Below, in pieces: positions 14,875 to 46,348 of a stretch of 64,000 bases of DNA. Each line of letters begins with the position of its first letter. Position 1 is the first letter of the stretch. Location of the stretch: sequence record NZ_CP031419.1. The stretch is one strand, 5' to 3'. A model generated the notes under the pieces. It worked only from the letters and a program-made list of their open reading frames with translations, did not search any database and was not told the origin of the DNA. The translations under genes were made by a program, and so were the position numbers. The stretch is from a plasmid.

Positions 14875-14895
14875 GGGAATCGTCCCTTCGTGATT

Positions 14896-15082: not shown

Positions 15083-15097
15083 ATGTTTTAGATACAC
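15083..15097 (+). promoter_or_regulatory. TTTAGATACA motif copy 2 (ATGTTTTAGATACAC)
   Basis: identical 16-mer GGATGTTTTAGATACA also at 38979-38994; upstream of 15311 gene. Confidence 0.5.
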
Positions 15098-16255: not shown

Positions 16256-16261
16256 GGCCCC

Positions 16262-17267: not shown

Positions 17268-17527
17268 CGGAGTCATGGCACTGTGAAGCGTACGGACCCG
17301 AAGGTGTCGAAGTCGGGGCCCGGTGTTTCGTCGCGGGCGAGCTGCACGAGCGGGTCTGCACCGATCCGGGCGTGTGTCACCGGACGATGGTGGCAGAACG
17401 CCAGAGGGTTTTCCGGCGGATGAACGAGTTGGCCGCCGGTGGGTCGCCGTGGGCGGCCGACTTGGCGCAGGAGTTCGCCAGCCCCGAGCGGATTCTCGGC
17501 GGCACGGACGAAGACCCCAGTTCCTGA
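17264..17527 (+). CDS. hypothetical Cys-containing small protein
   Basis: GTGA overlap; 87 aa. Confidence 0.35.
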   Translation: MTESWHCEAYGPEGVEVGARCFVAGELHERVCTDPGVCHRTMVAERQRVFRRMNELAAGGSPWAADLAQEFASPERILGGTDEDPSS

Positions 17528-17786
17528 TTCGGCCGTGGCCACGCGTGTGGGATGCCGCGTCTTTGGCATACTGGCTGCGGGCCGTGGCGGGCGGCCCTAC
17601 GGCCTGCTGATGCAGCGGGAGACCCCGTTGAAGAAGCGTATCGCTCCACCCGCCCACTAACATTGATGCCCTGCTGACGCTGATATGGAGCTGAACTGGG
17701 CAAATGCGGTTCTGGCTCCGGATAACTGCCATTATCCGGAGTGACACCAAAAAACACTACGGTGAGATACCCCCGCGCGGAGCACC

Positions 17787-17800
17787 TTTAGATACATTAG
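17787..17800 (+). promoter_or_regulatory. TTTAGATACATTAG motif copy 3
   Basis: ~100 nt upstream of 17897 start. Confidence 0.5.
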
Positions 17801-17896
17801 AATAAATGGGCATGGCGGGAGCGCGATACCCGCGTCCACCAGCGGCGAACGCCGCCGGAGGAGATGACCCAGAGCGACGGGGGAGAGGGGAAACCG

Positions 17897-18796
17897 ATGA
17901 CCAAGGCAAACGACCCGGCGGTAGCGGCGGACGCGGAAGGCTGGCGGCTCGATCCGGTGCGCCTGGACTGGGATACGGTCCTCCTCCGCGATCCCGCATA
18001 CCGTGATCCTGCCGAACTGCTGTTCGCGGGCAAAACGATGGGGATCGGCGGAATTGCCGCTCTGGTCGGCGTACCCGTCACCGCCTTCCTGGCCCTGCTG
18101 ACGGACTGGGCCTCGTGGTGGTGGTGCATTCTCGCCGCAGGCATCCTTATCGTATCCGGGCTGTCGACCGCAGCGATCGGAGCGGCCTTGGATCAGCGGC
18201 AGATGGAGAAGGCCACGCTGACCGGGGCAAGGCTGAAGGTATTGCCGCCGGCCCTCTGCCGTCCGCTGGCCCGCGCGATTCTTGCCATCGAGGACATCAA
18301 GTCCGGCCGGGCATTTCGCGAGAAGTATCTGGGCGAGCTGGAGCTGAGCGCAACGGCCTGGCAGATGGCGCAAACAGCGCTGCGCGGAGGAGAACTGGTG
18401 GCGGCGCGGACCGAGCTGCTCGACGCCGAAGAAGGAGTCATCTCGCCCGCCGACCGTGTTGCGGCCGAAGCCGCGCAGCGGACGGTCGACGAGCTGGTCG
18501 AGGGCCTGGAGCGTGACGCCGAAGCCCTGGCCACCGCAGCGGCATCGGCCCGGACGCTGTCAACGGCGCTGGAGGACACGGAGGCGCGCGCACTGGCGGA
18601 AACCGAGCGGGAACGAATCTCCCGCCAGCAGCTCGCGCGCCGACACCGGCTCGACGCGGCGCTCGCTGCGGTCCGCACCGCCGACGAGGCCAATTCCCCT
18701 GACACCGCAGATCTCGCGGTCGCCCGCGCCGCCGCCTACGCCGAAGTCATGCAGCTCGGTGGGACACCTACCCCCGGCCTGGTACAGCCGGACTGA
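17897..18796 (+). CDS. membrane protein (two predicted TM helices) with long coiled-coil-like tail
   Basis: hydrophobic segments 'GIGGIAALVGVPVTAFLALL' and 'WWWCILAAGILIVSGLSTAAIGAAL'; RBS GGGGAGAGGGG before ATG 17897 (track start 17864). Confidence 0.55.
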   Translation: MTKANDPAVAADAEGWRLDPVRLDWDTVLLRDPAYRDPAELLFAGKTMGIGGIAALVGVPVTAFLALLTDWASWWWCILAAGILIVSGLSTAAIGAALDQRQMEKATLTGARLKVLPPALCRPLARAILAIEDIKSGRAFREKYLGELELSATAWQMAQTALRGGELVAARTELLDAEEGVISPADRVAAEAAQRTVDELVEGLERDAEALATAAASARTLSTALEDTEARALAETERERISRQQLARRHRLDAALAAVRTADEANSPDTADLAVARAAAYAEVMQLGGTPTPGLVQPD

Positions 18797-18816
18797 CGCT
18801 CAGGAACCCCACCGGT

Positions 18817-19011
18817 TCAGGCCGCGGTAATCTCGAACAGGGTCAGCGCCGCGCTGTTAGCGTGTTGTTCGGCACGCTCCTTCACAGCACAGGTTGGGCC
18901 GATCCCCGCGCTCACCGAAGCCGCCGAAAGCAGCCAGCCGTGGCAGCGGCGGCAGTGCACGACGAGCCGCACCGTCGGCTGTTCCTGGTCATCGGTCTCG
19001 GTCGCGGCCAT
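18817..19011 (-). CDS. small zinc-ribbon protein (CxxC…C)
   Basis: GGAGGAGAG RBS 7 nt before ATG 19011; 'VHCRRCHGW…GIGPTCAV'. Confidence 0.45.
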   Translation of the reverse strand: MAATETDDQEQPTVRLVVHCRRCHGWLLSAASVSAGIGPTCAVKERAEQHANSAALTLFEITAA

Positions 19012-19150
19012 GTTCGATCTCTCCTCCGGCCGGGTGGGTCTCTCCCAGGGTGACACAAGTGACCGACAACTCCGGCACGGTAGGGACGGCAAGGTTTTGG
19101 GTCGTTCCGTCCCGCAGAGCATGGGGCAGCCGGGCCCGACTTAAGGGAGG

Positions 19151-19747
19151 TCAGACCGGCAGGGGGTCGATGCGGTCGGCGGCGTAGTGGTAGAGCCGCC
19201 AGACCGATTTCGAGAGCAGCTCCCGGTCGGCGCAGCACACGGTCGCCAGGGCCGGACGGCCGTCCTTGGTGGTGGGGTAGCGGCCCTGGTCGCCGTTGCG
19301 GTCGTGGCGTTCGAGGTCGCGGACGAAGGCAACGATGTCGCGCTCGGTCTCCCCAGTGCCGAGCAGCGGATCACCGGCCGCGGCGAGGGCGTCGAGGAAT
19401 GCGGTGAGAACGTGGCTCGACCTCAGCGCGGGGATGCCGGAGTAGGCCGGATACAGCGCCTTGAGCGACAACTCGGCGAGCTGACGCGACAGGAAGAACG
19501 CCGGCTGCGCGGCCCCGGCGTCGATGGCGGCTTGGGCGGCCGAGGCGAATTCGAACAGCGTCGTCGAGGGCGCGTTGATCGGATGCTCGCGGGACATGCA
19601 GAGCACGTCGTCTCGGCTGTCGTGGTCGACCGTGGGGTCGCCGAACGGACTGATGTAGGCCACGGACGGGAATTCTGCTCCCCGATCCGGGGCGGGGGAA
19701 GCGGTTTTCGCGGCCCGTGCTGAGGCGGTCCGCGCCGTCTCCGGCAC
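19151..19747 (-). CDS. hypothetical protein
   Basis: 198-aa ORF with protein-like composition. Confidence 0.5.
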   Translation of the reverse strand: MPETARTASARAAKTASPAPDRGAEFPSVAYISPFGDPTVDHDSRDDVLCMSREHPINAPSTTLFEFASAAQAAIDAGAAQPAFFLSRQLAELSLKALYPAYSGIPALRSSHVLTAFLDALAAAGDPLLGTGETERDIVAFVRDLERHDRNGDQGRYPTTKDGRPALATVCCADRELLSKSVWRLYHYAADRIDPLPV

Positions 19748-19760
19748 GCGGCCGTGCTTG

Positions 19761-20075
19761 TCAGAGATCGAACCGGACGGCGAGCACCATCTTGATGAAG
19801 TCGAGCATCTCGGTAGTCACCGTCCCGTCGTAGGTTCCGGCCTCGAGTACCGCTCGCACGCAGGGAATGAACCGGTGTACGGCGAGCACGCGGCCCTCGT
19901 CCCAGCCCACCGAGAAGATTCGCAGGTCTTGCGGCATCTCCCGGGCGTCGACGACCGGCACCGCCAGCGCCACATCACGATGGCGCAGCAACGCCTGGCC
20001 GTCGACGATCACCACGGTCAGATAGCCGTCACCGGCGGCGATGGTGTAGATGTCGCCCTGGTGCAGTTCCCTCAC
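19761..20075 (-). CDS. MazF/PemK-family-like type II toxin
   Basis: 104 aa; 'GDIYTI…', 'VALAVPVV' and C-terminal 'DGTVTTEMLDFIKMVLAV' align with MazF/PemK blocks; 4-nt overlap with upstream antitoxin. Confidence 0.55.
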   Translation of the reverse strand: MRELHQGDIYTIAAGDGYLTVVIVDGQALLRHRDVALAVPVVDAREMPQDLRIFSVGWDEGRVLAVHRFIPCVRAVLEAGTYDGTVTTEMLDFIKMVLAVRFDL

Positions 20076-20281
20076 AGGGACATGCCCATGCCGATGCGCA
20101 GCAAGTCGGCATCGCTGTACTTCGGCGGGTTCTGTTGCTCGTGCGCGGCGATGCGCCGCAACTCCTTGTCCGCGAGCCGCTGGAGCACGGCCCGGTTGAT
20201 CTCGGCACTGACGTTGCCCTCCGCGCTCTCGCGCAGAGCCTGGGCCGTCGCGTCCGGGAGGCTGATGTTCAGTTTCGCCAT
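20072..20281 (-). CDS. ribbon-helix-helix (CopG/ParD-type) antitoxin
   Basis: 69 aa, 'MAKLNISLPDATAQALRE…' typical RHH N-terminus. Confidence 0.55.
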   Translation of the reverse strand: MAKLNISLPDATAQALRESAEGNVSAEINRAVLQRLADKELRRIAAHEQQNPPKYSDADLLRIGMGMSL

Positions 20282-20285
20282 GCCA

Positions 20286-20314
20286 CCACGGTAAAGCGTG
20301 TCGCTTTACCGTGG
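20286..20314. promoter_or_regulatory. 13-bp perfect inverted repeat CCACGGTAAAGCG-TGT-CGCTTTACCGTGG abutting the antitoxin start (candidate TA operator)
   Basis: IR ends 5 nt before the antitoxin ATG and overlaps its RBS. Confidence 0.45.
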
Positions 20315-20333
20315 CAAGCGGGCGGGCCGTCGA

Positions 20334-21038
20334 TCAGAGCGGGAACAGCGACGGTTGGGCGTTGGCATTGCCAGTCCAGGACAAAACGTTGGGGAGGTTC
20401 GCGTCCGGGGCGAAGGTGAGGTAGGTCCCATCGACACTGTCGCAGCCGATCGCAGTCGCGTAGTCATAGCGGCGGCGCGAGTTCACCCGGCCCATATGGA
20501 CCCACTTGCCGAGGCTCGAGGCGACCGCGGCGAGGTTCGCCGCCGCCGGGCCGAGCTTCCAGGCGGTGTCCCCGGCGAGGAACAGACAGTCAATCTCGTC
20601 CCACGGGTCCCAGGTGTCGAACTCCATGAAATTCTGGGCCGCGAAGGCGACGGGAAACCCGAGATCGCGGATGCGCCGCAGCATCGGCAGAGAGCGGGCG
20701 AGCGTGGCGAAGTGGTCGCCGACAACGTCGGGCGCCACCACGAACAGACAGCGGTCGGCGTGCGGGCGCAGCCGGCCGAGCCAGTTCAGGTAGGCGTCGT
20801 CACCGGGATAGGCCCCGCCGAACACCCCGTTGTCGGCACACCACAGCGGGTAGTCAGCGCTCAGGCGGTTGCCTTGAGCGGGAGTCATGATCGCGCCCAG
20901 TTCCTCGGCGCGGATTCGGTCGCGGATCGCGGGTGTGCTGGGTGGGGTGAGGTAGAGCGGAGCGCCAGGAGTGCAGTCGTGCCAGCGCTCGGCCGCCCAG
21001 CTCTCATTAAAACGTTCGTTTTGGTTATCGGCAGGCAT
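20334..21038 (-). CDS. hypothetical protein
   Basis: 234-aa ORF, 'LWCADNGVFGGAYPGDDAYLNWL' core; no family assigned. Confidence 0.55.
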   Translation of the reverse strand: MPADNQNERFNESWAAERWHDCTPGAPLYLTPPSTPAIRDRIRAEELGAIMTPAQGNRLSADYPLWCADNGVFGGAYPGDDAYLNWLGRLRPHADRCLFVVAPDVVGDHFATLARSLPMLRRIRDLGFPVAFAAQNFMEFDTWDPWDEIDCLFLAGDTAWKLGPAAANLAAVASSLGKWVHMGRVNSRRRYDYATAIGCDSVDGTYLTFAPDANLPNVLSWTGNANAQPSLFPL

Positions 21039-21137
21039 GGATGCTTCCCTCCCACTGTGGCGGGGTGCGGTCGGAGACGGGAGAAGAAGGGCGGCGGACG
21101 AAGACCCCGGACCGCCGCCCCGCTCCCGATGGGAGGA

Positions 21138-21785
21138 CTAGAAGGTGAGTGTGAACCGCAGCGCGGCGCGGTACTCCTCGAACTCGACATCGAGGATCTT
21201 GCCGGTGAACTTCTCCCAGTTGCCCACAACGACGAAGTGCCGTTCGGCCAGCTGGCGCGTGGCTTCCTCGGTCGTGTCGACTGGAGTGGCTGGCGGGTCG
21301 AGCGGGACAAAGGTGCCCATCGGGTGGTCCTCGTAGTCGAAGACCTCGACCGTGCCGCCCGGGGACCAGGTCGCGCGCACCGTGATCACGCCCCGGAACT
21401 CGGCCTCCATGGCCCTGACGATTTCGGTCAGCTGATCGGCTGCGGTGAACAGCGCGGTCGCGCGCTCGTGCAGATCCGGGCGGTTACCAGCGAACAAGCG
21501 ATCCATGTACGCGCGGGCGGTATCGGTGTAGGTGTTGACGGTGTCGCCCAGGACAGCGAGCACGCCGTCGCCCTCGGCGCCTCCGTGGAAGTGGCCGACG
21601 GCGGCCGCCGCCGCGAGCGCGCGAACGGTCAGGTCGGCGGCGCAATCGACGAACCCGTCGGCGTCCTGGACCGCCAACTCCTGCGCGACCTCGGTCAGGA
21701 ACCGCACGACCTTGCTGGTCTCGGTCGCGGGCCGGGTGTCCTCGGTGGCGGGGCGCAGCGGGAACGGGTTGCTGATGATCTCCAT
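21138..21785 (-). CDS. hypothetical protein
   Basis: start ATG 21785 (MEIISNPF) with GAAGGGA RBS; preceded by cassette B. Confidence 0.55.
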   Translation of the reverse strand: MEIISNPFPLRPATEDTRPATETSKVVRFLTEVAQELAVQDADGFVDCAADLTVRALAAAAAVGHFHGGAEGDGVLAVLGDTVNTYTDTARAYMDRLFAGNRPDLHERATALFTAADQLTEIVRAMEAEFRGVITVRATWSPGGTVEVFDYEDHPMGTFVPLDPPATPVDTTEEATRQLAERHFVVVGNWEKFTGKILDVEFEEYRAALRFTLTF

Positions 21786-21806
21786 GATCGGGAGTCCCTT
21801 CAAGGT

Positions 21807-21888
21807 GTGCGAGTGGGGGATGAAGGGGCGGGGTGTCCGGTCCCGCCGCCTTCTGTGTCATATATTACCCGTTATCTGGAATGAGTCA
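21807..21888 (-). promoter_or_regulatory. promoter-leader cassette B (-35 TTGACT, 16 nt, -10 TAATAT, stem-loop, CCCCCACTCGCA box)
   Basis: see cassette A. Confidence 0.6.
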
Positions 21889-21922
21889 AGTCTTCCCGCG
21901 TATGTGTGGTGTGTGTCGCCGG

Positions 21923-23197
21923 TCAGGCCGATATTGGGAACAGCGCCAGGTCGGTGCCGGTGGCCTGCGCCCACCAGTCGGCGAATCCTGGCCGTTCCTT
22001 GTCGGCGACGACGGCGGGGGCGACGACGAAGAAGTGCTCCAGCTCGTGCGGGCTCGTGCCGTCCCGGCCGGGGACGACCGCGCGGGCGATGCCGTCGTCC
22101 CCGAGCTCGCGGCGGGTGTCGACGAGCGCCGGGGAGCCGTCGGGCCCGCCGATATCGACCCGCAGCGGAGCGCCGTCGAGCCAGGCGGCCATCTCTTCGC
22201 GAGAACCGACGTCGACCGACCGCACCGATCGCGCGACCATCTTGGCCCCGCCGGTTTGGGTGCGCCGGGCGAGGCGGCGGACCTCGTAGAGGGCGTGAGG
22301 TTGTTCGGCGAGCGCACTCTCGAAGGCGGCCAGGACGCCGGTGAGTCCGGCCGCGCGCACGTAGTCGATGGCGCGCTTGCCGCCGACGAGGCCCTGTTTG
22401 GCGTTGAGCGCGAGTGCGGTGTGCTCCATCAGCAGCATCCGCGCCCCGGCGTCTGGGAACGCCGCGTAGCGCGCCAGGGTGGCGACTCGATTGGCAGCGG
22501 TGACCAGCGCGAAGGGACAGAACACGCACGCCGACTTCTGCCATGCTCGGCCGGTCTTCTCCCGGATGTAGGCCAGCACCTGTTCCCGGTCCCAGCCCCA
22601 GGAGATCAGTGGGTACTCACCACGCCGCAGCGCGGTGTCGTATCCGGCGTCGCGGCGGGCCCGCGTCAGCTCGCCTGCCTCGAATCCGACGACGTGCCGG
22701 TACGGCCGTCCGTGTGTAATCGCGGCGATCACCGGGTCGAGCACTTCGCCCTTGGCCGACATGCTGCACCGACGACTGCCACCGACCTGCGGCTGAGTGC
22801 CGGCCGTGAGCATCTCGGTGCCGAGGGTGTAGGCGCCCTCGATATAGAGGCGGTGCGGCGATCGGGAGTCGTCGAAGACGATGACGCCGGTGCCATCAGC
22901 GCGCACCCGGCGGTCGGCCCGCCCGACCTGGATGAACCGAATCCGGTGCTGGGCCAGTAGCGGGAGCACGACCTCGGCCACGTCCCGTGCGGTGTCTTCC
23001 CATTCGTCGCCCACCATGGCGGTGACGACGGCCAGCTCCGCCAGGTCGAAGTCGCGGCTGTCGGGGTCGAAGATCCAGCGCAGCAGCAGGGCGGTGCTGT
23101 CGGCCCCAAGTCCATAGGACAGCACGACTCGGGGCGCGGGTTCGTGCGCGGCGAGCTGCTCCCGCAGTGCCGCGGGCACAGCGGGCCCGGTCACCGG
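21923..23197 (-). CDS. PAPS-reductase-like (PP-loop ATP-pyrophosphatase fold; DndC/IbrA-like) protein
   Basis: 'VVLSYGLGADSTALLLRW' PP-loop-like motif; GTG start 23197; upstream part of the track ORF is low-complexity. Confidence 0.55.
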   Translation of the reverse strand, partial: PVTGPAVPAALREQLAAHEPAPRVVLSYGLGADSTALLLRWIFDPDSRDFDLAELAVVTAMVGDEWEDTARDVAEVVLPLLAQHRIRFIQVGRADRRVRADGTGVIVFDDSRSPHRLYIEGAYTLGTEMLTAGTQPQVGGSRRCSMSAKGEVLDPVIAAITHGRPYRHVVGFEAGELTRARRDAGYDTALRRGEYPLISWGWDREQVLAYIREKTGRAWQKSACVFCPFALVTAANRVATLARYAAFPDAGARMLLMEHTALALNAKQGLVGGKRAIDYVRAAGLTGVLAAFESALAEQPHALYEVRRLARRTQTGGAKMVARSVRSVDVGSREEMAAWLDGAPLRVDIGGPDGSPALVDTRRELGDDGIARAVVPGRDGTSPHELEHFFVVAPAVVADKERPGFADWWAQATGTDLALFPISA

Positions 23198-23502
23198 TTC
23201 GCCCGATCGCGGACGCGCAGGGCCACCCCGCCCGAGCCCGGCGGGCAGGTGCAGCCCGCCGCGTGCAGCTCGTCGGTGATGCGCCGCCAGGCGCGGTAGT
23301 GCCGTAGTCCGCCCTCGACGGCCACCGCACCGGCGAGGAACATCAGGCTGGAGATGATCGCGGGGAACTCCGACGACACTGCGCCGAGGGCGTACATCGA
23401 GCCCCCGGTCAGCCAGCCGGTGGCCACAACGGCGTGTGCCTGGGCGAGCCAACTCTGGTCGTGCTGTTCGTCATGACGTCGGTCGTGCTGGAAGTTGTTC
23501 AC
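23191..23502 (-). CDS. small membrane protein
   Basis: GTG 23502 with GGAGGAG RBS 7 nt upstream; 'MYALGAVSSEFPAIISSLMFLAGAVAV' TM segment; leader box copy E (23522-23534) just upstream. Confidence 0.5.
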   Translation of the reverse strand: MNNFQHDRRHDEQHDQSWLAQAHAVVATGWLTGGSMYALGAVSSEFPAIISSLMFLAGAVAVEGGLRHYRAWRRITDELHAAGCTCPPGSGGVALRVRDRANR

Positions 23503-37121: not shown

Positions 37122-38309
37122 CTAGCGTCCGGGCCGCACCAGCCCGGAAGTGGGCGAGTACTTCATCGGGAACAGGCCCGCCAGGGTCGCCGCAAGCTCT
37201 CGATAGGCCAGCACCGTGCGCGGGTGCAGCAACTGCGGATCGATGACGCCGCCCTCGTCGAGGTGACGGTCATAGGGGATCTCGTGCACGGCGTGGACCA
37301 AGTGGTTGAACCACCTCGTTGCCGCGCTCGCGTCGAACATTCGCCGGCCGGGCTGCTGATGGGAGATCACGACGACGGTCCGGGACAGCAAGCCCCGGTA
37401 CAGCCAACGGCGCTCGCCCCGTTCGTCCAGCAATGGGTCCCCGGTCACGGGGTCCTTCGCGAAGGCGGTGTGCAGGTACTCGACCGCCGCCACCGCCTCG
37501 TCGGCGGAATCCTTCTTGGCGTCGAGGGGGATCACCAGCGCATCGGCCTCGTCGAGAACGGCCTGGGTGGCTGGGTGGGTGATCCCGGTTCCGCAATCGG
37601 CCAGCATCAGCGGGAAGTAGTCGCTCGCCAGGTCGACCAGCTGGCGGTAGTCGTGGGCGGAGAAGCTGTCGGCCGTCGCCGGATCGGCTGCCGAGGCCAA
37701 GATGTCCAGGCCCGCCGGTGTCAGTTGCGTGTGAGTGCGCACGTCCTGCACCCGCCGCGGCCGCGGTCCGGCCAGCAGGGTCAACGCCGAGGACTCGGTG
37801 CGCGCCGTTGTCCGGCGTGCCAGGTTGCCCCTATCGGGATTGACGTCGAACGCGATTACGCCATCGGTCCGGCAGGCTGCGAAGGCGTTGCCGATCCCCA
37901 TGGCGGTCGTTGTCTTCCCTGATCCGCCCTTGAGCTGTACCACTCCGATGCGGAAATCGGACTCGATCGCGGTGCGGATTCGCCGGTCGAGCTCCCTGGC
38001 GCGCACTTCGGCGGGGCTCTCTCCGAGGTTCAGCGTTTTGCCCGACATCAGATAAAGCGCACGCCGCCAACCCGATCCCGGAGCTGGGCGAACCGGGTCT
38101 CGGCGCCAGTCCCGCGACTCTGGGGTAACCGCCGCTGACCGATCAGACGACGTGTGCCGCCACTCGCCGGCATGCGCCCGCTGGAGCGGGCTGACGCCCT
38201 GTGCGGGAACGCCGTCTGTCCATAGCCCGCTGTCGGCGCGCCCTCCGTAGGCCGCGGTGTCCGTACTCCACGGCGCCACCACGGGCGGGGGCGAGTACTG
38301 CTTGGCCAT
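37122..38309 (-). CDS. ParA/MinD-family ATPase with ~110-aa low-complexity N-terminal extension
   Basis: 'VVQLKGGSGKTTTAMGIGNA' deviant Walker A; second ParA-like gene in the element. Confidence 0.7.
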   Translation of the reverse strand: MAKQYSPPPVVAPWSTDTAAYGGRADSGLWTDGVPAQGVSPLQRAHAGEWRHTSSDRSAAVTPESRDWRRDPVRPAPGSGWRRALYLMSGKTLNLGESPAEVRARELDRRIRTAIESDFRIGVVQLKGGSGKTTTAMGIGNAFAACRTDGVIAFDVNPDRGNLARRTTARTESSALTLLAGPRPRRVQDVRTHTQLTPAGLDILASAADPATADSFSAHDYRQLVDLASDYFPLMLADCGTGITHPATQAVLDEADALVIPLDAKKDSADEAVAAVEYLHTAFAKDPVTGDPLLDERGERRWLYRGLLSRTVVVISHQQPGRRMFDASAATRWFNHLVHAVHEIPYDRHLDEGGVIDPQLLHPRTVLAYRELAATLAGLFPMKYSPTSGLVRPGR

Positions 38310-38326
38310 CCTCTATTCCCTTCTGC

Positions 38327-38779
38327 TCATGAGGTTTTCGATGAGATCTTGTCCTCGGTCGACTCCGATTGGGTGATCCGCTTGTCGCCCTCGGCCTTCT
38401 CGGCGACGGCCTCTTCGGCCCAGTCCGACCACGCCGGGTAGGACTCCGCTTCGGCCCACCATGCGTTGCGCGCGTCCTGCCACACCTCGACAGAGCAGCT
38501 GAACGAGCGCCGAGGCCGAGTGCCGGCCTGATCCGGGGGTGTGCGCCGACCAGGCGGCAATCGGTCCGGGGCGGGCTCGAACGTGGAGATACCGAGGTTC
38601 TGGCGCGTGCGCGCGGTCTTCTCGGCGAGCGCCGCCTCGAGCCATCCGGTCCAGGTCGGGTACTGGCGGAGTTGCTGGCCCCACTTCTTCTTGGCGGCTC
38701 CCCACACCTCGTCACTGCACGAAAAGTTCTCTCGGCTCCATCGACGTCCCCCCGCCGCGTCGGACTGTGTGTCGGCCAC
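38327..38779 (-). CDS. small protein with two ~37-aa internal tandem repeats
   Basis: 'FSCSDEVWGAAKKKWGQQLRQYPTWTGWLEAALAEKTA' / 'FSCSVEVWQDARNAWWAEAESYPAWSDWAEEAVAEKAE'; GTG start with GAGAGGAAGGAAGAG RBS. Confidence 0.5.
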   Translation of the reverse strand: MADTQSDAAGGRRWSRENFSCSDEVWGAAKKKWGQQLRQYPTWTGWLEAALAEKTARTRQNLGISTFEPAPDRLPPGRRTPPDQAGTRPRRSFSCSVEVWQDARNAWWAEAESYPAWSDWAEEAVAEKAEGDKRITQSESTEDKISSKTS

Positions 38780-38844
38780 AGGCTCTTCCTTCCTCTCGAC
38801 GGCGTCGCAGGCTGGGTCGCACCTGACCGCAGCCGCAGGGTTCC

Positions 38845-38996
38845 ACTGTATCTAAAGGTGCGTCCACACCTAATGGTCCGAGTACCCCCGCCGAGCCTTT
38901 CGGATCTATCGCACCATTAGATACATTAGAGGCATACCAAGTTTACCTGCGGCAACCGTCGCAGGTGAAACCGCAAAACGGATGTTTTAGATACAT
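38845..38996. promoter_or_regulatory. three TAGATACA motif copies in the divergent region (38845-38857 minus-oriented; 38916-38928 and 38981-38996 plus-oriented)
   Basis: CTGTATCTAAAGG / TTAGATACATTAG / ATGTTTTAGATACATC. Confidence 0.55.
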
Positions 38997-39061
38997 CAGC
39001 TACAACGGAACCATTGGGGCTGGTGACCATCGCCGCCCCGCCGCCGAACAAGGAGGCGAAC

Positions 39062-42000
39062 ATGGCGCGGCGAATGCGAAGAATGCAGAGCGAAGGCCAG
39101 CTCAGCCTGGAGGCTCTATGGGGTGACCCGGACCCGGCCCCCTCGACCGTCGACAACCGAAAGGACAATGAGCGCGATGATCATCGATCAGGTCAGGACG
39201 TACTACTCGACGTACCTGCCACAGACGACCGCAGCACTGGACGACTCGGAGGAGTTCTTCCAGGAGCTGAGCGACCAGATCAGCCAGCGGGTCGAGCAGA
39301 TCACGGCGCAGCTCGAAACGAACGCGATCGTGCCGGGGCAGGACTACCTGGAGCGAGTGGGAACGCTGAACACCCTGCGAGCGCAGGCACTGGAATCGGC
39401 GCTGGCGGAGCTGCTGTACTCGACACCCCCGGAAGTCGACGAGGACCCGGAACCCAGCCAGACCGAACGCGACCTGCTGGTGATGCAGCAGGAGGAACGC
39501 GCGGTGGATCAGCGGCTGGAGATGGCACCGGGCAGCCCGGAGGCGATCGAGTGGGATCGCCGGTATCCGCATCTGGTCGAGGAAGTGAACTGGATGCTGA
39601 CCGATCACGGGGAGCTGACGGTCGAGCAGAAGCGCGAGCAACTGGCGCAGATCATGCACCGGCAGGACGAAGCGAGGGCCCGGCTCCGTCCGTAGAGCCC
39701 CGCACCGGCGAAGGTGGGGACGTCCTTCCCGCCGGGGAACGGCATTACCTGATCGACGGGCTAGAAGTCTGGGAAGCAACCGCCAGCGACTCCCAGGAGG
39801 GCCGATGGGAACGTGCCCGCAGCATCGGTACGGCCACCAGCGCTGAGGAAGCCATCCGCTTGGCGCAGGCCGACGCAATGTTCACCCCGGCCGAGCTGGC
39901 AACGCTGCGCTGCAAGGTCGAGGACGAGGCGTACTCCTACGGCGGGTACAACCGCCCACTGGAGATCTTCAACCCCGGCACCGCCCCTCGCTACTTGACC
40001 GAGGGGCCGCTCAAGTCGTTGTCCACCGGGGAGCGGTTCGGCCCGACCTGGCTTCTGGTGGAGTCCTACCTGCGCGCGCACCCGGACCTCTACGACGAGA
40101 CACCCACTTCGGTGGAAGCCCGCCAGGCGCAACGCAGTGCGGCCGTCAAATCGCTGACCACCGAGGCCGCCGAGCACTTCCGGGCCGGCCGACTCGCCCG
40201 CGCGCGAGAACTCGTCGATCAGGCCGAACTCGCCAACCCCTACGAGACCGGGACATACGACGGCATCCGCGCCCGCATCGACCGGCTCGCAGGGATCGTC
40301 GACGAACTCGGGCTCTCGCGACCGCAGGAACGGTTCGACGGGCTGCCCGGGGGCAAGCAGGCACAGGTCAGCGTCGGCGACCACAGCTTCTCCCTCGAGC
40401 CCCGAGGGGGCGGCCGTTGGGTCGTCTACCCGAAAACCGGCGGCGTCGAGGACCAATCCACACTGGCGGAACCCATGCCGACCAGCGAGGTAATGCCGCG
40501 CATTCGGACCTACCTGGCAACTCTCTCCGCCCCGCAGAACCCCGAGCCAGCAGCTCACGCTCCCAGCGCTGCGACGACTGCCGCAGAACCGCGCAATCCC
40601 GCGACCCCAGGGGCTGCCCCGGAGGAACCGCTTCTGATCGTCATCGAGCACACCGCGGAGGGCACGCTCGTCCGCAACACCGACAAGAACAACCTCGAGC
40701 TCCGGCAGGCCCTGCATGACGCCAAGTTCAATTGGTCACGCCCGCAAAAGTTCTGGTACCAGCGGCGGGCAACAGATTTCGCGGTGCGTACCCGTCGAGT
40801 CGGTTACCTCCGGGCCTCGCTGACCAGGCTCGGGTTGCCCTTCACGGAGACGAATCCGGCGAGTGCCTTGTCCGCCACCGCGGCCGCGGACGCCGTTGAG
40901 GTCGCGGCTCCGGAGAGAGCGCACGAGCAGCGAACACCCACTGAAACCCAACGTGATCCGGCAGCGGAGTCGGTGGCCTCCGCCGAGGTTTCACCGACGG
41001 CTTCGAGCACGCCGACGCCGCCTTCACTGTCACCTGAAGGCACTGCTAACACCACGACGGCGACATCGACGGCGGTTCCTACCTCCCGAACCGAACCGCC
41101 CGCCGACCAGCCGGACAGCGCCGCCGGAATTGCCGAAGTCCCGGCACCCGAACAATCGCCGGCTCCGAAGGTCGAGGTGCCACGCTCGACCCAGCGCCGC
41201 ATCGAGGCGAACCTGGCAGCGATCAGGACTCTCCAGCTGGTCGAGGCCGAGAGCCGTCAGCCGACCGACGCCGAGCGGGAAGTGCTGGCGAAGTGGACCT
41301 CGTGGGGTGCTGCTCCCCAGATCTTTGACGCTGAGCGCGAAGAGTTCCGTTCGGACGCCGAGTCGCTGCGGGCCCTGATCGGCGAGGAAGGCTGGAAACA
41401 AGCCAATCGCACCGTCCTCAATGCCCACTACACCGATCCGATGATTGTTCGGGCGATGTGGGACCACCTTCGGGCACTCGGGTTCACCGGCGGTCAGGTA
41501 CTCGAGCCAGGTTGCGGGGCGGGGGCCTTTATCGGGCACGCTCCGCAGGCGGCATCGATGACCGGCATCGAGCTGGACTCCACCACAGCGCGCATCGCGC
41601 AAACGCTGTACCCGCGCGCCAACATTCGCGTCGAGTCCTTCGCGGACACCCGGCTCCCGGAGGGGCACTTCGACGCCGCGATCGGAAACGTGCCGTTCTC
41701 CTCGGCCCGCCTCCACGACCCGGTCCACAACGCCGGCGAGCACACCATGCACAACCACTTCATTCTCAAGTCGCTCGCGCTGACCAAGCCCGGCGGCGTG
41801 GTGGCGGTGGTGACCAGCTCGTTCACGATGGACAACAAGAACCCCGCTGCTCGCCGCGAAATCGCCGCGCAAGCGGACTTTCTGGGCGCAATCCGACTTC
41901 CCAACGGTACGCACCGACGGGTCGCGGGCACCGACGTGCTCACCGACATCCTGATCCTGCGCCGCCGCGACGGTGAAGCCCGCCGACCCGGCGGGCCCTT

Positions 42001-45000
42001 CGAGCTAGCCGTCACCGCCGAGCTCCCGCTGACCCGGGGACAAGGGGAGACAGAATCGGTACTGGTCAACGAGTACTTCCTCAACAATCCGGAGATGGTG
42101 CTCGGTGACCTGCGGGCGGGCACCAGCGTTTACGGTGGGCTCGCGGTCGAAGTGCTCGGCCGCGGCGACCTGGAGCAGCACCTGCGCGACGCGCTGGCTC
42201 GAATCGCCGAACGCGCCCTGTCCGAGGGCATCGCCCATCAGCCCAGGGAGCTGGCCAGTGGCGAGCGTCGGGCAGCCGCAGCCGCTCCCGGTGATCCGAA
42301 CGAATTCCCTGGCCATCTGCGCACCACGGCGAGCGGATTCGAAGTGCTGCACACCGATGGCACCTACAGCGAGCTGAAGGTGCCCAGCACCCAAGCCGAG
42401 GAGCTGCGGGCACTGCTCGGCTTGCGAGACACCGCGGTTGACCTCTTGGAAAACGAGGCCGCCAACGCCGAGGACTCCGACGAGATCGAGGCCCTGCGCA
42501 CGCGCCTCAACCAGCGCTACGACCGCTACGTCGAGCGCTATGGAGCGATCAACCGATGCTCCTGGCATCCGACCGGCCGTGTCGACGACGCCGGGGAACC
42601 GGTGATGTCCGTACGCCGGCCGCCGGTGATGCGGGTGTTCCGCGACGATCCGCACGCGCCGGTTGTGCTGGCCCTCGAGGACTACGACGCCACCACCGAC
42701 AGCGCGGTGAAGATGGCCATCATGCGTCAGCGCGTCGTCGCGCCGCGCAGTCCGCGCCTGGGTGCGGATACTGCCGAGGACGCGGTGGCGATCTGCCTCG
42801 ACACCCACGGCAAGATCGATCTCCCGGTCATCGCGGGCCTGCTCGGCGTAGACGACGACGAAGCCCGCGTCCAATGCCGAGGTCTCATCTACCCCGACCC
42901 CGCCGACAACGGCCGGTACGTTCCAGCGGCGGAATACCTCTCGGGGAACGTGCGGGTCAAACTCGATCAGGCCCGCGAGGCGGCTGCGGCGAACCCGGAG
43001 ACCTACAGCGACAACGTCACCGCGCTCACCGCGGTCATCCCGCCCGACCTCGGACCGGCCGAGATCGACGCCCGCCTGGGCGCGGTGTGGATCGAAGCGC
43101 CCGACGTGCAGGCGTTCCTCAACGAGATCCTCAACGATGACACGATCACCGTCGAGCACACCAAGGCGGGGGAGTGGAAGGTCACCGGCGGCCGTCGCGG
43201 CATTCTGTCGACCCAGGAATTCGGCACTTCCCGCGTCCCGGCGCCCAAACTCGCCCAGGCCCTGCTGCGGCAGGCCCCGATCCGCGTCTACGACCCGGAC
43301 GAGAACGGTGAGGCTCGCATCCCCAACCCCACCGAAACCGAAGCCGCCAACGAGAAGGCCGAGCAGCTCAACGAGCGGTTCTCCGAATGGGTGTGGGAGA
43401 ACCCGGTCCGGGCCGCACGCCTGAGCGAGGAATACAACCGGCGCTTCAACAACCTGGTGCTGCGCAACTACGAGGCCGACGGCAAGATGCTCAGTCTGCC
43501 CGGCCTGTCCAAGGTCTACACCCCGCGTCCGCACCAGCGCGCCGCGGTGGCTCGCATGATCGCCGAACCGAACGTGGGCCTCTTCCACGCGGTCGGCGCT
43601 GGCAAGACCCTCGAAATGGCGATGGGCGTCATGGAGCTCAAACGCCTGGGCCTGGTGAACAAGCCTGCCATCATGGTGCCCAACTCCATGCTCGACCAGT
43701 TCGCCCGCGAATTCCTCCAGGCATACCCGCAGGCGCGCATCCTTGCCGCCGGCACCGAGGATCTGGCCGGGGAGAAGCGGCGGCAGTTCGTCGCTCGCGC
43801 GGCCACCGGGGACTGGGACGCGATCATCCTGACCCGCGGGTCATTCCAGCGCCTCGAGGTCTCCCGCGAGACCGCGCACTGGTACTTCGATCGTGAGATC
43901 GAGCCCCGGCGCCAGTACCTGGCGGAACTGATGTCCGGCAGCGCGAAACGCAGCGTCGTCAAGCGTATCGAAGACGCGATCCTCAAGTCCGAGGAGAAGC
44001 TGAAGAAGAAGCTCGGCGGTCCCACCGATCCGGGCATCACCTTCGAGCAGTCCGGCATCGACTACATCGTGGTCGACGAGCTGCACGACTTCAAGAATCT
44101 GGCTACCGACACCCAGATCGAGTCCGCCGCCATTGCGGGCAGCCAGCGGGCGCAGAAGCTGCACATGGTCGTGGAGTACCTGCGCGACAAGCACAACGGT
44201 CGCGCCATCACCGGCGCCACGGCCACCCCGCTGGCGAACTCGATCACCGAGGCGTACGTCGTGCAGCGCTACCTGCGCCCGGACCTGCTCGAAGAGGCCG
44301 GAATCCGCAACTTCGACGAGTGGGCGGCCACCTTCGGCAAGACCAAAACCGAGCTGGAGATGTCGGTCGACGGCAACTCCTGGAACCTCAAGACCCGGCT
44401 CGTGGGCTTCCGCAACGTTCCTGAGCTGCAACGCATGTTCCATGTCGCCGCCGACGTGAAACTGCCCGAGGATCTGAACCTCCCGGTGCCCAAGCTCGCC
44501 CGCCGTGCCGACGGGCAGCGTGCGCCGGAGGTCATCTCGGTGCCAGCCACCGAGACCCAGCTCGAGTACGTCCGCGACCTCGGGCACCGCGCCCAGATGG
44601 TGAAATCGCGGGCGGTCGACCCGACCCGCGACAACATGCTCAAGATCTCCTCCGACGGCCGCGCCGCAGCGCTGGATCTCCGGCTGGTCAAGTCGCTCGG
44701 CCTCACCCCTGGCGCCGCAGAAGAACAGGGGAGCCCGACGCTGGACACCGCAGAGGGAGCCGCCATTGCCGGATATCTCCACTCGAAATCCCCGAGTCCG
44801 TCTACAGCGAGGTATGTCGCACTGTACGCAGCGCGATCACGCCACGAACCGCAGCGCCAGGAACCGCAGGAGATTGCCGAGGAAGAGTTCGGTCTCAAGC
44901 TCGAGGCGGCGGCGGACTGGATGTTCCAGAAGTGGCAGGCCGCCAAGGATCAGGTCTACCTCGGCCGGGATGGGCAACCCCACGCCCGCCGAGGCGGGCT

Positions 45001-46348
45001 CGTCGTCGCGTTCTGCGATCTGGGCACCCCCGGTGAGGACTGGAACGCCTACGACGAGCTCAAGACGAAGCTCATCGCGCGGGGCGCTCCGCCGGAGCTG
45101 TTCGCCTACATCCACGACGCGAAGAACGACAAGGGCAAAGCGGCGCTGTTCACCAAGGCCCGAAACGGCAGCATCCAGTTCTTGTTCGGTTCCACGTCCA
45201 AGATGGGCGTCGGCGTGAACATCCAAGACCGCATGGTCGCCATGCTGCACGTCGACTGCCCTTGGCGGCCCGCCGATATCGAGCAGCGCGACGGCCGCGG
45301 CATCCGCCAGGGCAATCAGAACGAGGAGATCGCGGTTGGCCGAGTCGTCACCGAAGGCACCTTCGACGCCCGAATGTGGGCGGCCCAGGCGCGCAAGGCG
45401 GCCATGGTCAATCAGTTCATGAAGGGCTCTCTGACCGCCCGCGAGATCGACGACATCGGCGACGCGGCCCTCAACGCCAACGAGGCCCTCGCTATCGCCA
45501 GCGGCAACCCCCTGGTGCTGGAGAAGGCCGAGATCGACATCGAGGTCACCAAACTCGAACGTCTGCGGCGCGCGCACCAGCGCAGCCAGTCCATGCTGCA
45601 AATCCGCATCCGTGATGCCAACGACGCGATCCCCAAACTGGAGGCCGAGATCGACGCCTACACCCGGGCGATCGAGCACCGCAGGCCAACCAAGGGCGAT
45701 GCCTTCGCCGCCAAGGTCAGCGGACGCTTCTACGACCACCGCGGCGACGCCGGCGACGCCTTGGCCGCCCGGCTGCTCAAGCTGATCGAAGACCCCCGGG
45801 CGGTGTGGAAGGAGTTCGAGGACCACGGAGTGGCCGAGATCGCTGGCTTCACCTTGGACGCCCGCAACGTCCCGACGGGCCGCGAAGCCAGGGTGTCGGT
45901 GGTGTTCTCCGACATCGGCGACGATGTCTACGTCACGCTCGACAAGGCGACGCTCCAGAAGGGCGGGACCGCCGTGATGCTCCGCCTGGAGAACGCCGTC
46001 AACGGCTTGGACAAGCGGCTTGAGGTTGCCACCGGGCGGCTCGAAACCGAGCGCACGGAACGAGAGCGCTCCGAACTCCGCCTCGGCAAACCGTTCGAGC
46101 ACAGCGAACGGCTGGATGCGCTCCGGGAACGACAGAAGGAGATCAACAAAGAGCTGCTCGGCAGCAAGGAAACGGAGACCGAGAACGCCTCGACCGATCC
46201 GGCGACGGCGCCCGACGAGGCCGAATCCATCCGGTCGGCCGCAATGCACGACGCCGCAGCAATGGTTCACCAGATGGGAGGTGCCGCAGTGGTCAACAGC
46301 CCCAGTGGGATCACGATCATCAGCGATCGGGGCGGGCGGGCTCGGTGA
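39062..46348 (+). CDS. giant N6-adenine DNA methyltransferase / SNF2-family helicase (DarB-like antirestriction-type protein); 5' end uncertain
   Basis: MTase motif I 'VLEPGCGAGAF' and motif IV 'GNVPFS'; helicase motif I 'AVGAGKTLE', II 'VVDELHDF', VI 'QRDGRGIRQG'; AAGGAGG RBS before ATG 39062, but 39170-39695 of this frame is low-complexity while the +1 frame is protein-like. Confidence 0.8.
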   Translation: MARRMRRMQSEGQLSLEALWGDPDPAPSTVDNRKDNERDDHRSGQDVLLDVPATDDRSTGRLGGVLPGAERPDQPAGRADHGAARNERDRAGAGLPGASGNAEHPASAGTGIGAGGAAVLDTPGSRRGPGTQPDRTRPAGDAAGGTRGGSAAGDGTGQPGGDRVGSPVSASGRGSELDADRSRGADGRAEARATGADHAPAGRSEGPAPSVEPRTGEGGDVLPAGERHYLIDGLEVWEATASDSQEGRWERARSIGTATSAEEAIRLAQADAMFTPAELATLRCKVEDEAYSYGGYNRPLEIFNPGTAPRYLTEGPLKSLSTGERFGPTWLLVESYLRAHPDLYDETPTSVEARQAQRSAAVKSLTTEAAEHFRAGRLARARELVDQAELANPYETGTYDGIRARIDRLAGIVDELGLSRPQERFDGLPGGKQAQVSVGDHSFSLEPRGGGRWVVYPKTGGVEDQSTLAEPMPTSEVMPRIRTYLATLSAPQNPEPAAHAPSAATTAAEPRNPATPGAAPEEPLLIVIEHTAEGTLVRNTDKNNLELRQALHDAKFNWSRPQKFWYQRRATDFAVRTRRVGYLRASLTRLGLPFTETNPASALSATAAADAVEVAAPERAHEQRTPTETQRDPAAESVASAEVSPTASSTPTPPSLSPEGTANTTTATSTAVPTSRTEPPADQPDSAAGIAEVPAPEQSPAPKVEVPRSTQRRIEANLAAIRTLQLVEAESRQPTDAEREVLAKWTSWGAAPQIFDAEREEFRSDAESLRALIGEEGWKQANRTVLNAHYTDPMIVRAMWDHLRALGFTGGQVLEPGCGAGAFIGHAPQAASMTGIELDSTTARIAQTLYPRANIRVESFADTRLPEGHFDAAIGNVPFSSARLHDPVHNAGEHTMHNHFILKSLALTKPGGVVAVVTSSFTMDNKNPAARREIAAQADFLGAIRLPNGTHRRVAGTDVLTDILILRRRDGEARRPGGPFELAVTAELPLTRGQGETESVLVNEYFLNNPEMVLGDLRAGTSVYGGLAVEVLGRGDLEQHLRDALARIAERALSEGIAHQPRELASGERRAAAAAPGDPNEFPGHLRTTASGFEVLHTDGTYSELKVPSTQAEELRALLGLRDTAVDLLENEAANAEDSDEIEALRTRLNQRYDRYVERYGAINRCSWHPTGRVDDAGEPVMSVRRPPVMRVFRDDPHAPVVLALEDYDATTDSAVKMAIMRQRVVAPRSPRLGADTAEDAVAICLDTHGKIDLPVIAGLLGVDDDEARVQCRGLIYPDPADNGRYVPAAEYLSGNVRVKLDQAREAAAANPETYSDNVTALTAVIPPDLGPAEIDARLGAVWIEAPDVQAFLNEILNDDTITVEHTKAGEWKVTGGRRGILSTQEFGTSRVPAPKLAQALLRQAPIRVYDPDENGEARIPNPTETEAANEKAEQLNERFSEWVWENPVRAARLSEEYNRRFNNLVLRNYEADGKMLSLPGLSKVYTPRPHQRAAVARMIAEPNVGLFHAVGAGKTLEMAMGVMELKRLGLVNKPAIMVPNSMLDQFAREFLQAYPQARILAAGTEDLAGEKRRQFVARAATGDWDAIILTRGSFQRLEVSRETAHWYFDREIEPRRQYLAELMSGSAKRSVVKRIEDAILKSEEKLKKKLGGPTDPGITFEQSGIDYIVVDELHDFKNLATDTQIESAAIAGSQRAQKLHMVVEYLRDKHNGRAITGATATPLANSITEAYVVQRYLRPDLLEEAGIRNFDEWAATFGKTKTELEMSVDGNSWNLKTRLVGFRNVPELQRMFHVAADVKLPEDLNLPVPKLARRADGQRAPEVISVPATETQLEYVRDLGHRAQMVKSRAVDPTRDNMLKISSDGRAAALDLRLVKSLGLTPGAAEEQGSPTLDTAEGAAIAGYLHSKSPSPSTARYVALYAARSRHEPQRQEPQEIAEEEFGLKLEAAADWMFQKWQAAKDQVYLGRDGQPHARRGGLVVAFCDLGTPGEDWNAYDELKTKLIARGAPPELFAYIHDAKNDKGKAALFTKARNGSIQFLFGSTSKMGVGVNIQDRMVAMLHVDCPWRPADIEQRDGRGIRQGNQNEEIAVGRVVTEGTFDARMWAAQARKAAMVNQFMKGSLTAREIDDIGDAALNANEALAIASGNPLVLEKAEIDIEVTKLERLRRAHQRSQSMLQIRIRDANDAIPKLEAEIDAYTRAIEHRRPTKGDAFAAKVSGRFYDHRGDAGDALAARLLKLIEDPRAVWKEFEDHGVAEIAGFTLDARNVPTGREARVSVVFSDIGDDVYVTLDKATLQKGGTAVMLRLENAVNGLDKRLEVATGRLETERTERERSELRLGKPFEHSERLDALRERQKEINKELLGSKETETENASTDPATAPDEAESIRSAAMHDAAAMVHQMGGAAVVNSPSGITIISDRGGRAR
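39177..39695 (+). CDS. hypothetical protein encoded in +1 frame inside the annotated 5' end of the giant ORF
   Basis: 'MIIDQVRTYYSTYLPQTTAALDDSEEFFQELSDQISQRVEQ…' has normal protein composition, unlike the overlapping frame; ends TAG 39693-39695. Confidence 0.45.
   Translation: MIIDQVRTYYSTYLPQTTAALDDSEEFFQELSDQISQRVEQITAQLETNAIVPGQDYLERVGTLNTLRAQALESALAELLYSTPPEVDEDPEPSQTERDLLVMQQEERAVDQRLEMAPGSPEAIEWDRRYPHLVEEVNWMLTDHGELTVEQKREQLAQIMHRQDEARARLRP

Follow-up and report, generated by a model that had tools for sequence, protein, structure and literature searches.

A TnpV-like gene probably nested out of frame within the 5' part of a giant methylase-helicase gene on plasmids of Nocardia and other Actinomycetota

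Introduction

Where does a giant plasmid gene begin, if its reading frame stays open far upstream of the start codon chosen by annotation, across a small gene read in another frame? The question is raised by a 64,000-nucleotide (nt) stretch of a Nocardia plasmid (sequence record NZ_CP031419.1), hereafter called the window, which over this stretch is about 97% identical to Nocardia farcinica pNF1 and to three other Nocardia plasmids. On its plus strand, an open reading frame (ORF) at 39014-46348 encodes a giant methylase-helicase, and its 5' part coincides with a gene for a small protein in the +1 frame. The original prediction for this DNA held the 5' end of the giant gene to be doubtful and offered three ways out: a separate upstream gene followed by an unusual start, a programmed -1 frameshift fusing the two, or an indel. 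The doubt was well placed, as conserved coding begins upstream of the annotated start, TTG 39860. Here we argue for an arrangement missing from those options, a nested gene pair, which in our comparison of related loci fits best.

Results

Two coding frames at one locus

From ATG 39062 onward, the giant frame has no stop until 46348. A Shine-Dalgarno sequence, AAGGAGG (39050-39056), lies 5 nt 5' of this ATG, which is in the frame of the 39014-46348 ORF, in agreement with the ribosome-binding site described before; Nocardia loci keep it as (A/C)(A/G)GGAGG. Judged by the ORF list, domain matches and motifs, the full giant gene would thus span 39062-46348, stop included, and encode 2428 residues.

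The small gene lies wholly inside it. Third-position G+C content, homologues and a predicted fold point to a 172-residue protein encoded at 39177-39695 (TAG at 39693-39695), as first described. We take ATG 39177 as its start because most Nocardia orthologues lack an equivalent of the alternative ATG 39168. A Shine-Dalgarno-like AAAGGA (39160-39165) precedes it within the giant frame, where it codes for R-K-D. In 26 of 26 loci examined, the nested start is preceded by such an element at a distance of 3-17 nt (mostly 5-12 nt), and in all loci examined the nested gene has its own Shine-Dalgarno sequence and ATG or GTG.

Third-position G+C content changes frame at the borders of the nested gene. 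Between 39040 and 39160 the giant frame is coding-like (0.82); between 39160 and 39700 the +1 frame reaches 0.80-0.90, versus 0.35-0.42 for the giant frame; from about 39820 the giant frame is coding again (0.88-0.93). The earlier impression that the giant frame is protein-like again past 39700 thereby holds, as it does from the conserved block at 39731-39781 discussed below. The low complexity noticed at 39170-39695 is equally real: the 176 giant-frame codons over the nested gene (39167-39697, stop-free) specify G, A, R, D, P, S, T or E in 85% of cases and hydrophobic residues in 8.5%, with G at 21%, A at 17%, R at 12%, D at 10% and P at 8.5%. We call this segment the tether. Past the nested stop, the earliest canonical giant-frame starts are indeed TTG 39860 and ATG 39878 (39860-39880), both probably internal codons; to be added to the candidate starts is GTG 39551, which lies in frame within the overlap and follows a GGAGG at a distance of 7 nt.

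The same pattern recurs in more than 40 related loci, so the frame switch is due neither to chance nor to error. Both frames bear coding signatures of their own, and the layout is conserved across Actinomycetota, which suggests that both are translated and both products made.

We therefore propose, with a probability of about 0.7, a nested gene pair. Translation of the giant protein would start at ATG 39062 and yield a conserved peptide of about 35 residues, with a basic stretch followed by QLSLEALW. The frame would run on through the 176 overlapping codons as a Gly/Ala/Arg/Asp/Pro-rich tether and emerge near 39730 as folded protein, beginning RHYLIDGLEVWE, followed by an LPD36 domain, an N6-adenine-type methylase and an SNF2 helicase up to the stop at 46348. 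Other ribosomes would enter in the +1 frame at ATG 39177, served by its own ribosome-binding site within the giant gene; their product would be an all-helical TnpV-like protein of 172 residues, terminated by the TAG at 39695. If both frames are translated in this way, the sequence can be explained without a frameshift, a sequencing error or an odd start codon. Tryptic peptides predicted from the giant frame include MQSEGQLSLEALWGDPDPAPSTVDNR and SGQDVLLDVPATDDR.

A conserved leader peptide in the giant frame

The first part of the giant frame, MARRMRRMQSEGQLSLEALWGDPDPAPSTVDNRKD (39062-39166), precedes the nested gene and is present in all related loci. We compared it with the leaders of the Rhodococcus plasmid pYLC2 (L002), whose small protein is 49% identical to the nested protein of the window, of a dozen Nocardia loci and of a metagenome contig with 63% GC (L016). 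In all compared relatives, a start codon that opens the giant frame precedes the nested start by 106-118 nt, and most of these codons have a Shine-Dalgarno-like element. The peptide follows the consensus [MV]-(A/G)-R-basic ... (S/D)(E/D)x-QLSL(E/D)xLW(G/A)DP.P.PST.

Over 24 codons and 8 lineages, codon pairs in the giant frame differ synonymously 216 times and non-synonymously 162 times; the corresponding counts in the other two frames are 42/335 and 35/333. In the motif-anchored alignment, 11, 9 and 22 of the 24 columns vary at codon positions 1, 2 and 3, respectively. By these codon-level measures, the leader is a conserved peptide evolving as protein in the giant frame. A scan for the leader motif in all three frames upstream of the nested start returned 18 matches among 24 loci, each of the 18 in the giant frame. 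In the window, the core motif QLSLEALW occupies 39098-39121. Its variants are QLSLEALW, QLSFEALW, QLSIDAFLF, QISLDDFLF, QLAFDLWG, QLAFDIFG, QQSLDLW, QLALWDL, ELDLWG and QLSFDDLL, and QLSLFDD in Iamia.

This core resembles the motifs by which proteins bind the beta sliding clamp, with the consensus QL[SD]LF or QLxLxL and examples such as QLSLPL of Hda and QLPLWG of mycobacterial ImuB (PMC10421592). Like them, it has Q-L-S/A/D-L/F followed by aromatic or Leu residues, and as in Hda it sits in an otherwise unstructured N-terminal peptide: a low-confidence single-sequence model of the leader segment predicts no structure. The window's QLSL fits consensus positions 1-4, and the Iamia leader has an exact QLSLF. 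Unlike the known motifs, the window has Glu at position 5 in place of a hydrophobic residue, with L-W at positions 7-8, so that the aromatic residue comes three later. We infer that the leader serves as a short binding motif, and its partner may be the beta sliding clamp.

On the metagenome contig L016, an upstream gene for a DUF6349 protein (4218-4793) begins MAPGGGCRMSWEQLDLLDEL, also with an N-terminal QL[SD]L-type motif, and DUF6349 genes lie near the giant gene in Leifsonia (L018) as well. An N-terminal motif of this type may be common to several plasmid proteins. We also considered that the basic N-terminus of the leader might act as a ParA-activating tail, since a ParA gene adjoins in many loci; we dropped this reading because the par operon appears complete without the leader.

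The giant frame is kept open across the nested gene

Given the frame relation, a stop in the giant frame arises only where a nested codon ending in T is followed by a codon beginning with AA, AG or GA. No such stop exists inside the nested gene of the window or of 16 loci of the Nocardia/Rhodococcus group (L002-L017), nor in 19 further plasmid loci from Arthrobacter, Paenarthrobacter, Kocuria, Microbacterium, Dermacoccus, Pimelobacter, Nocardioides, Pseudonocardia, Micromonospora, Streptomyces and others, which brings the nested loci to 36 in all. In the window and L002-L017, T-ending codons stand before none of the 41-53 risky codons per locus and before 5-17 of the others; over all loci, these figures are 0 of 22-53 and 1-17.

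In the window and L002-L017, the chance of an open frame per locus is 0.01-0.35 by synonymous permutation and 0.006-0.10 by resampling with the codon usage of the giant gene; over all nested loci it is 0.004-0.55, and the 15 intact plasmid loci described below fall in the same range. As a control, the giant gene's own -1 frame contains 1.4-3.4 stops per equivalent length in the window group and 0.3-5 over all loci. T before risky codons is generally under-used in that frame, with a ratio of 0.4-1.0; with this taken into account, eight lineages together should have about 15 stops, whereas they have none. In a control matched for kinship, 1159 aligned windows of 175 codons from the giant gene have an open -1 frame in at most 4 of 7 lineages, as compared to 7 of 7 for the nested gene. 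Altogether, these computations show a giant frame kept stop-free across the nested gene far beyond chance. Conservation of the low-complexity segment as protein in homologues, which the original prediction would have counted against its own account, is thus found in part: the open frame is conserved, the sequence is not.

Coding resumes directly after the nested stop

In eight Nocardia lineages, a conserved block, AGERHYLIDGLEVWEAT, starts 20-38 nt past the nested stop. In the window it lies at 39731-39781 and is predicted to form a beta-hairpin. Its synonymous and non-synonymous differences number 114/154 in the giant frame and 28/223 and 38/212 in the other frames. The block begins about 130 nt upstream of TTG 39860 and before every start that gene callers use; as giant-frame conservation begins at 39731, the annotated TTG is too far downstream. 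Related loci share no conserved start codon in the interval from the nested stop to the block; where one exists in some loci, it falls inside the motif. Translation of the block must consequently come from further upstream, which speaks against the unusual downstream start once proposed. Of the earlier idea of a separate upstream gene followed by such a start, the separate +1-frame gene is borne out, and the start of the giant gene would not be unusual.

Public annotations differ at precisely this point. On pNF1 and relatives, RefSeq has a hypothetical small gene at the equivalent of 39177-39695 and a 'helicase-related protein' from the TTG equivalent to 39860. In Rhodococcus sp. YL-1 pYLC2, the RefSeq helicase-related start is a CTG inside the nested gene (L002, 5087), with an overlap of 100 nt. 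In agreement with the nested-pair model, the giant ORF of Paenarthrobacter aurescens pTC2 (L020) was annotated in 2006 in its long form, starting with the leader, although the nested gene is absent from that annotation. These cases illustrate how inconsistent start calling is in this gene family.

Spread of the layout and natural controls

A DNA-level match inside the giant gene led to Paenarthrobacter pYJN5-3, where a gene that PGAP names 'TnpV protein' is followed directly by one for a 'helicase-related protein'. The leader there, MAGRKKQIDGQLSFEALW, is in the giant frame; a stop codon immediately precedes the leader ATG, and from this ATG the frame stays open past the TnpV gene. With this TnpV protein as query, tblastn found 57 plasmids, and 24 loci in total were fetched. 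In 15 intact loci (from Paenarthrobacter, Arthrobacter, Kocuria, Microbacterium, Dermacoccus, Pimelobacter, Nocardioides, Micromonospora, Streptomyces and Actinacidiphila), the giant frame is stop-free over the whole nested ORF and on into the conserved module F(R)P.SQ.DLAPSG...AN..AL...W.GWGA. In four more, it is stop-free over the nested ORF and the giant gene is decayed further downstream. The nested gene itself is split in Citricoccus, Iamia has its TnpV-like domain in the giant frame, and three Streptomyces loci (L040, L042, L043) have a conventional tandem layout. Altogether, the nested layout is conserved in at least eight orders of Actinomycetota, with a nested gene of 90-190 codons.

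Two groups among these loci bear on the reading of the giant frame, the second as a natural control. The first comprises Micromonospora and three Streptomyces plasmids (L021-L023, L044), where 1.2-2.6 kb of the annotated giant gene come before the nested one. This upstream sequence encodes ordinary protein, with a region resembling a primase in Micromonospora and one of 865 residues in Streptomyces MBT27. Third-position G+C content of the giant frame is 0.8-0.98 on either side of the nested ORF; over the nested ORF only, it is 0.90-0.96 in the nested frame versus 0.38-0.50 in the giant frame. With coding on both sides, the two halves of the giant gene can be joined only by reading through. In the tandem loci, the TnpV stop overlaps the giant ATG (TGATG or TAATG), there is no leader, and the frame corresponding to the giant frame has 4, 9 and 6 stops in L040, L042 and L043, respectively. 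TnpV-like genes are therefore not stop-poor by nature; stops are missing only where the giant frame extends upstream.

Among L009, L015, L029, L030, L035, L039 and L034, several have a decayed or interrupted giant ORF beside an intact nested gene (with only 873 or 901 open codons, for example). These interruptions and the split nested gene of Citricoccus are cases of pseudogenisation or assembly errors. On the plasmid of Iamia sp. SCSIO 61187 (L024, 2392-3105), the TnpV-like domain is in the giant frame and the exact QLSLF leader in the -1 frame; this fusion looks like the outcome of a 1-nt insertion, either real or a sequencing error.

The nested TnpV-like protein

The nested protein has 11 close homologues and 261 distant ones, the latter for the most part small proteins that stand alone. 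Its N-terminal region of about 100 residues belongs to a large family of small actinobacterial proteins (the 261 matches), and its C-terminal extension of about 70 residues is confined to Nocardia and Rhodococcus relatives. Alignment scans of a genome collection found 8 Nocardia loci only, and those of metagenomes one Rhodococcus-like contig; the wider family was reached through the plasmid collection only, with the PGAP-named TnpV as query.

TnpV (Pfam PF14198) is a small protein of Tn4451-type elements. The nested protein is 33% identical (E=4e-11) to a relative that PGAP names 'TnpV protein', and its relatives of that name match PF14198 over the same helical region of about 80 residues with E-values of 1e-5 to 5e-3, at 17-25 bits and thus below the gathering threshold of 27 bits. 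The protein of the window has no PF14198 match in a Pfam scan and no informative family match in Pfam, NCBIfam or PHROGs. We accordingly call it TnpV-like, on pairwise and transitive similarity only. Its AlphaFold model, with a mean predicted local distance difference test (pLDDT) score of 86, consists of eight helices and nothing else, and has no structural match in the PDB. Presumably, the nested protein works together with the giant protein.

The giant methylase-helicase

The predicted enzymatic body of the giant protein is encoded at 41294-45313, with an LPD36-type motif at 41294, a methyltransferase at 41498-41689 and SNF2/ResIII and Helicase_C regions at 43520-45313. In Pfam, Methyltransf_25 scores 27.6 bits (cut-off 27), ResIII 23.7 bits (cut-off 22.5) and Helicase_C 26.5 bits (cut-off 23.5), the latter two making up a superfamily 2 ATPase of the SWI2/SNF2 type; SNF2-rel_dom scores under its cut-off. 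NCBIfam adds weak matches to DISARM DrmD and other Snf2 helicases. Motif I of the methylase reads VLEPGCGAGAF, and motif IV has the variant NVPF instead of NPP(Y/F). The LPD36-type GxG[GAS] motif, assigned by motif and by alignment with relatives, is WTSWGA at residue 745, within RRIEANLAAIRTLQ...LAKWTSWGAAPQIFD. Precomputed tables list PF28553-PF28555 for this protein, with 'WH_1 / DUF8437' regions towards the N-terminus.

The first predicted strands of the long protein are at residues 227-238. A single-sequence model of its first 371 residues has low confidence and gives weak support for disorder; the tether is probably disordered. Just past the YLIDG hairpin, three Nocardia relatives (L014, L010 and L011) carry an extra module, PYTHWAYFDDEASARACAADL..., faintly matched to RraB (PF06877) in precomputed tables; the N-terminal region past the tether is hence modular.

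This architecture matches that of the DarB-type polyvalent proteins, which combine an LPD36 helical domain bearing GxG[GAS] with an amino-methylase and a SWI2/SNF2 ATPase, and which have been proposed to accompany transferred DNA and methylate it against restriction (Iyer et al. 2017, PMC5512222). As in DarB of phage P1, an LPD36-type domain, an EcoKI/TaqI-like amino-methylase and a SWI2/SNF2 ATPase are predicted in one polypeptide, here on a conjugative-type plasmid; relatives of the giant gene carry Toprim-primase or UvrD modules, again as in that survey. The differences are motif IV (NVPF, not NPP(Y/F)) and the N-terminal leader and tether, which are absent from the published description; PMC5512222 makes no mention of TnpV, overlapping frames or frameshifts. 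On its domain matches, the giant protein would be a DarB-like polyvalent methylase-SNF2 helicase.

Alternative explanations

The most serious rival is a partial overlap, in which the giant protein starts at GTG 39551 (TTG in Rhodococcus), within the final 145 nt of the nested gene, and the leader ORF is a separate regulatory or coupling element or gives a second, longer isoform. All Nocardia, Rhodococcus and L016-type loci have a GTG or TTG here with a good Shine-Dalgarno sequence (in the window GGAGG at 39539-39543, 7 nt, then GTG at 39551-39553); at the DNA level, Nocardia and Rhodococcus resemble each other in exactly this stretch only (76% over 140 nt), and the helicase start called by PGAP on pYLC2 lies inside the nested gene. 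However, both GTG and GGAGG are dictated by the invariant SPEAIEW of the nested protein (GAG-TGG), and the Shine-Dalgarno sequence decays to GGAAG in L013 and L014. An internal start also leaves unexplained the conserved leader and the open giant frame upstream of GTG 39551, a part that alone has a chance of 0.025-0.6 per locus of being open (0.025 in Rhodococcus), and it is inapplicable to clades without that C-terminal region or with 1.2-2.6 kb of upstream coding. We judge it unlikely.

Considerably less probable is the tandem order adopted by PGAP, with a small gene at 39177-39695, the giant gene from TTG 39860 or ATG 39878 and the open upstream frame as a shadow ORF of high-GC DNA. The RefSeq annotation of pNF1 and relatives follows it, stop-free alternative frames are common at 68% GC, and the three Streptomyces relatives are truly tandem and translationally coupled. 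Yet it places outside the giant gene both a leader that is coding in the giant frame and the block at 39731-39781, which is under protein-level selection upstream of 39860 with no start conserved between it and the nested stop; the truly tandem loci, moreover, have 4-9 stops in the shadow frame and leader-bearing loci none.

Just as improbable in our view is programmed frameshifting, either a -1 shift near the nested end, as once suggested, or a +1 and then a -1 shift, by which the TnpV-like domain would come to lie between the leader and the body of the giant protein. The likeness to the -1 frameshifting of dnaX and insertion sequences (PMC5009743) lies in two overlapping same-strand frames with the downstream one at -1, so that the frame relation is right, and the in-frame fusion of Iamia indicates that such a product can be viable. 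In contrast to those systems, the nested frame has no X XXY YYZ site in its last 260 nt in any of 12 loci and none conserved anywhere: the window has no slippery heptamer, the 12 loci give only two non-homologous GC heptamers far upstream, and an Rfam scan found no element at the locus. The nested ORF always starts at the N-terminus of its family (MN.YG or MIID) with its own Shine-Dalgarno sequence, the 0-frame runs on upstream, and a shift gives no reason for a giant frame that is stop-free along the entire nested gene.

An indel, that is, one gene broken by compensating frame errors in sequencing or assembly, has only the frame switch itself in its favour and can be set aside almost with certainty. 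The window aligns without gaps over 39000-39900 to three independent assemblies, pNF1, N. neocaledoniensis and an N. cyriacigeorgica plasmid (about 97% identical), and more than 40 loci, sequenced in many projects and spread over many genera and several actinobacterial orders, show the same arrangement of two frames.

A number of points weigh against the nested pair as well. All of its support is comparative sequence analysis. The statistical strength of the open frame comes from combining lineages whose independence is incomplete; for the Nocardia group by itself, the upstream overlap has a chance of 0.1-0.6 per locus of being open. The tether sequence is not conserved beyond the demands of the nested gene, and only its openness favours translation. 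In the window's clade, the conserved in-frame GTG and the GGAGG that precedes it (39539-39553) might be used as an additional or alternative start. In Iamia (L024), the one locus at odds with the model, the leader frame closes about 600 nt on and, unless the record contains a 1-nt insertion, is not attached to the giant protein. Finally, a word-index look-up in a collection of 5.8 billion protein sequences found no protein that shares three 5-residue words with the leader, an empty result that shows only that gene callers skip the leader.

Surroundings of the locus

A gene of the ParA/MinD family adjoins the unit of leader, TnpV-like gene and giant gene, at 37122-38309 on the minus strand of the window and likewise in many unrelated plasmids, among them L016, L019, L020, L027, L035, L036 and L039, in divergent or co-directional orientation. 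The unit thus seems to belong to the plasmid maintenance backbone. In the intergenic region upstream of the window's leader, at 38847-38999, we noted a direct repeat, TTAGATACAT(T/C)AG (38917-38929 and 38987-38999), with an inverted copy at 38847-38856; a tandem TAGATACATTAGATACATTAGG also precedes the leader in L010, L011 and L013. Placed between the giant gene and the divergently oriented ParA operon, the repeat could act as an operator or centromere-like site. A simple scan of 38300-40000 gave no sigma-70-type promoter, and no Rfam element was found there.

Among the Streptomyces relatives, the three tandem loci (L040, L042, L043), on linear or large plasmids, consist of a 160-residue TnpV-like gene followed by a 26-30 kb giant gene of the UvrD-plus-SNF2 kind. 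The plasmid of Streptomyces sp. MBT27 (L031, from 856; 7355-23422 of the record) has a 16-kb giant gene with a nested TnpV-like ORF right after a 'phage portal protein' gene. This giant gene begins MPNRRIVNALSAYFETKRARRPWREELHPRDSKGRF, and its repeated small domains resemble the RHYLIDGLEVWE hairpin of the window. The portal-gene neighbourhood hints at capsid delivery instead of conjugation.

Discussion

Out-of-frame nested genes are known from comS inside srfAB of Bacillus subtilis and from B-in-A and E-in-D of phage phiX174. The pair proposed here shares with them a small gene with its own start, wholly inside a larger same-strand gene in another frame; both frames must stay open, and one product is of low complexity or disordered. 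It differs in that the nested gene, of 90-190 codons, is the older-looking and constrained partner, with free-standing homologues, and the host sequence is tether only. It is also conserved over several orders of Actinomycetota on plasmids, not within one genus or phage. In the literature on TnpV with helicases, on overlapping genes and on polyvalent proteins, we found no description of this arrangement. The kind is thus known, and the instance appears undescribed and unusually deeply conserved.

In bacteria, long same-strand genes that are fully nested, with good evidence for both products, are rare and disputed. This pair would be unusually well supported, by an inner gene of such length in at least eight orders, by un-nested controls and by a stop-free tether. 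It further reveals that a prominent class of plasmid proteins is systematically misannotated: PGAP and other gene callers shorten the giant protein and lose its N-terminal motif, or elsewhere omit the nested gene. As a result of these gaps, domain surveys of polyvalent anti-restriction proteins missed both features.

As to function, it is conceivable, though on balance we would bet against it, that the leader is a beta-clamp-binding peptide on an overprinted tether that recruits the methylase-helicase to clamps on plasmid DNA during complementary-strand synthesis. If so, plasmid DNA would be methylated in a new host before restriction enzymes act, in a bacterial analogue of PCNA-tethered maintenance methylation. 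The nested TnpV-like protein would then be an obligatory partner, fixed in linkage and co-expression by living in the DNA of the tether. Should the leader prove to be a clamp-binding or other docking motif, it would offer a testable handle on how giant plasmid proteins are targeted after DNA transfer.

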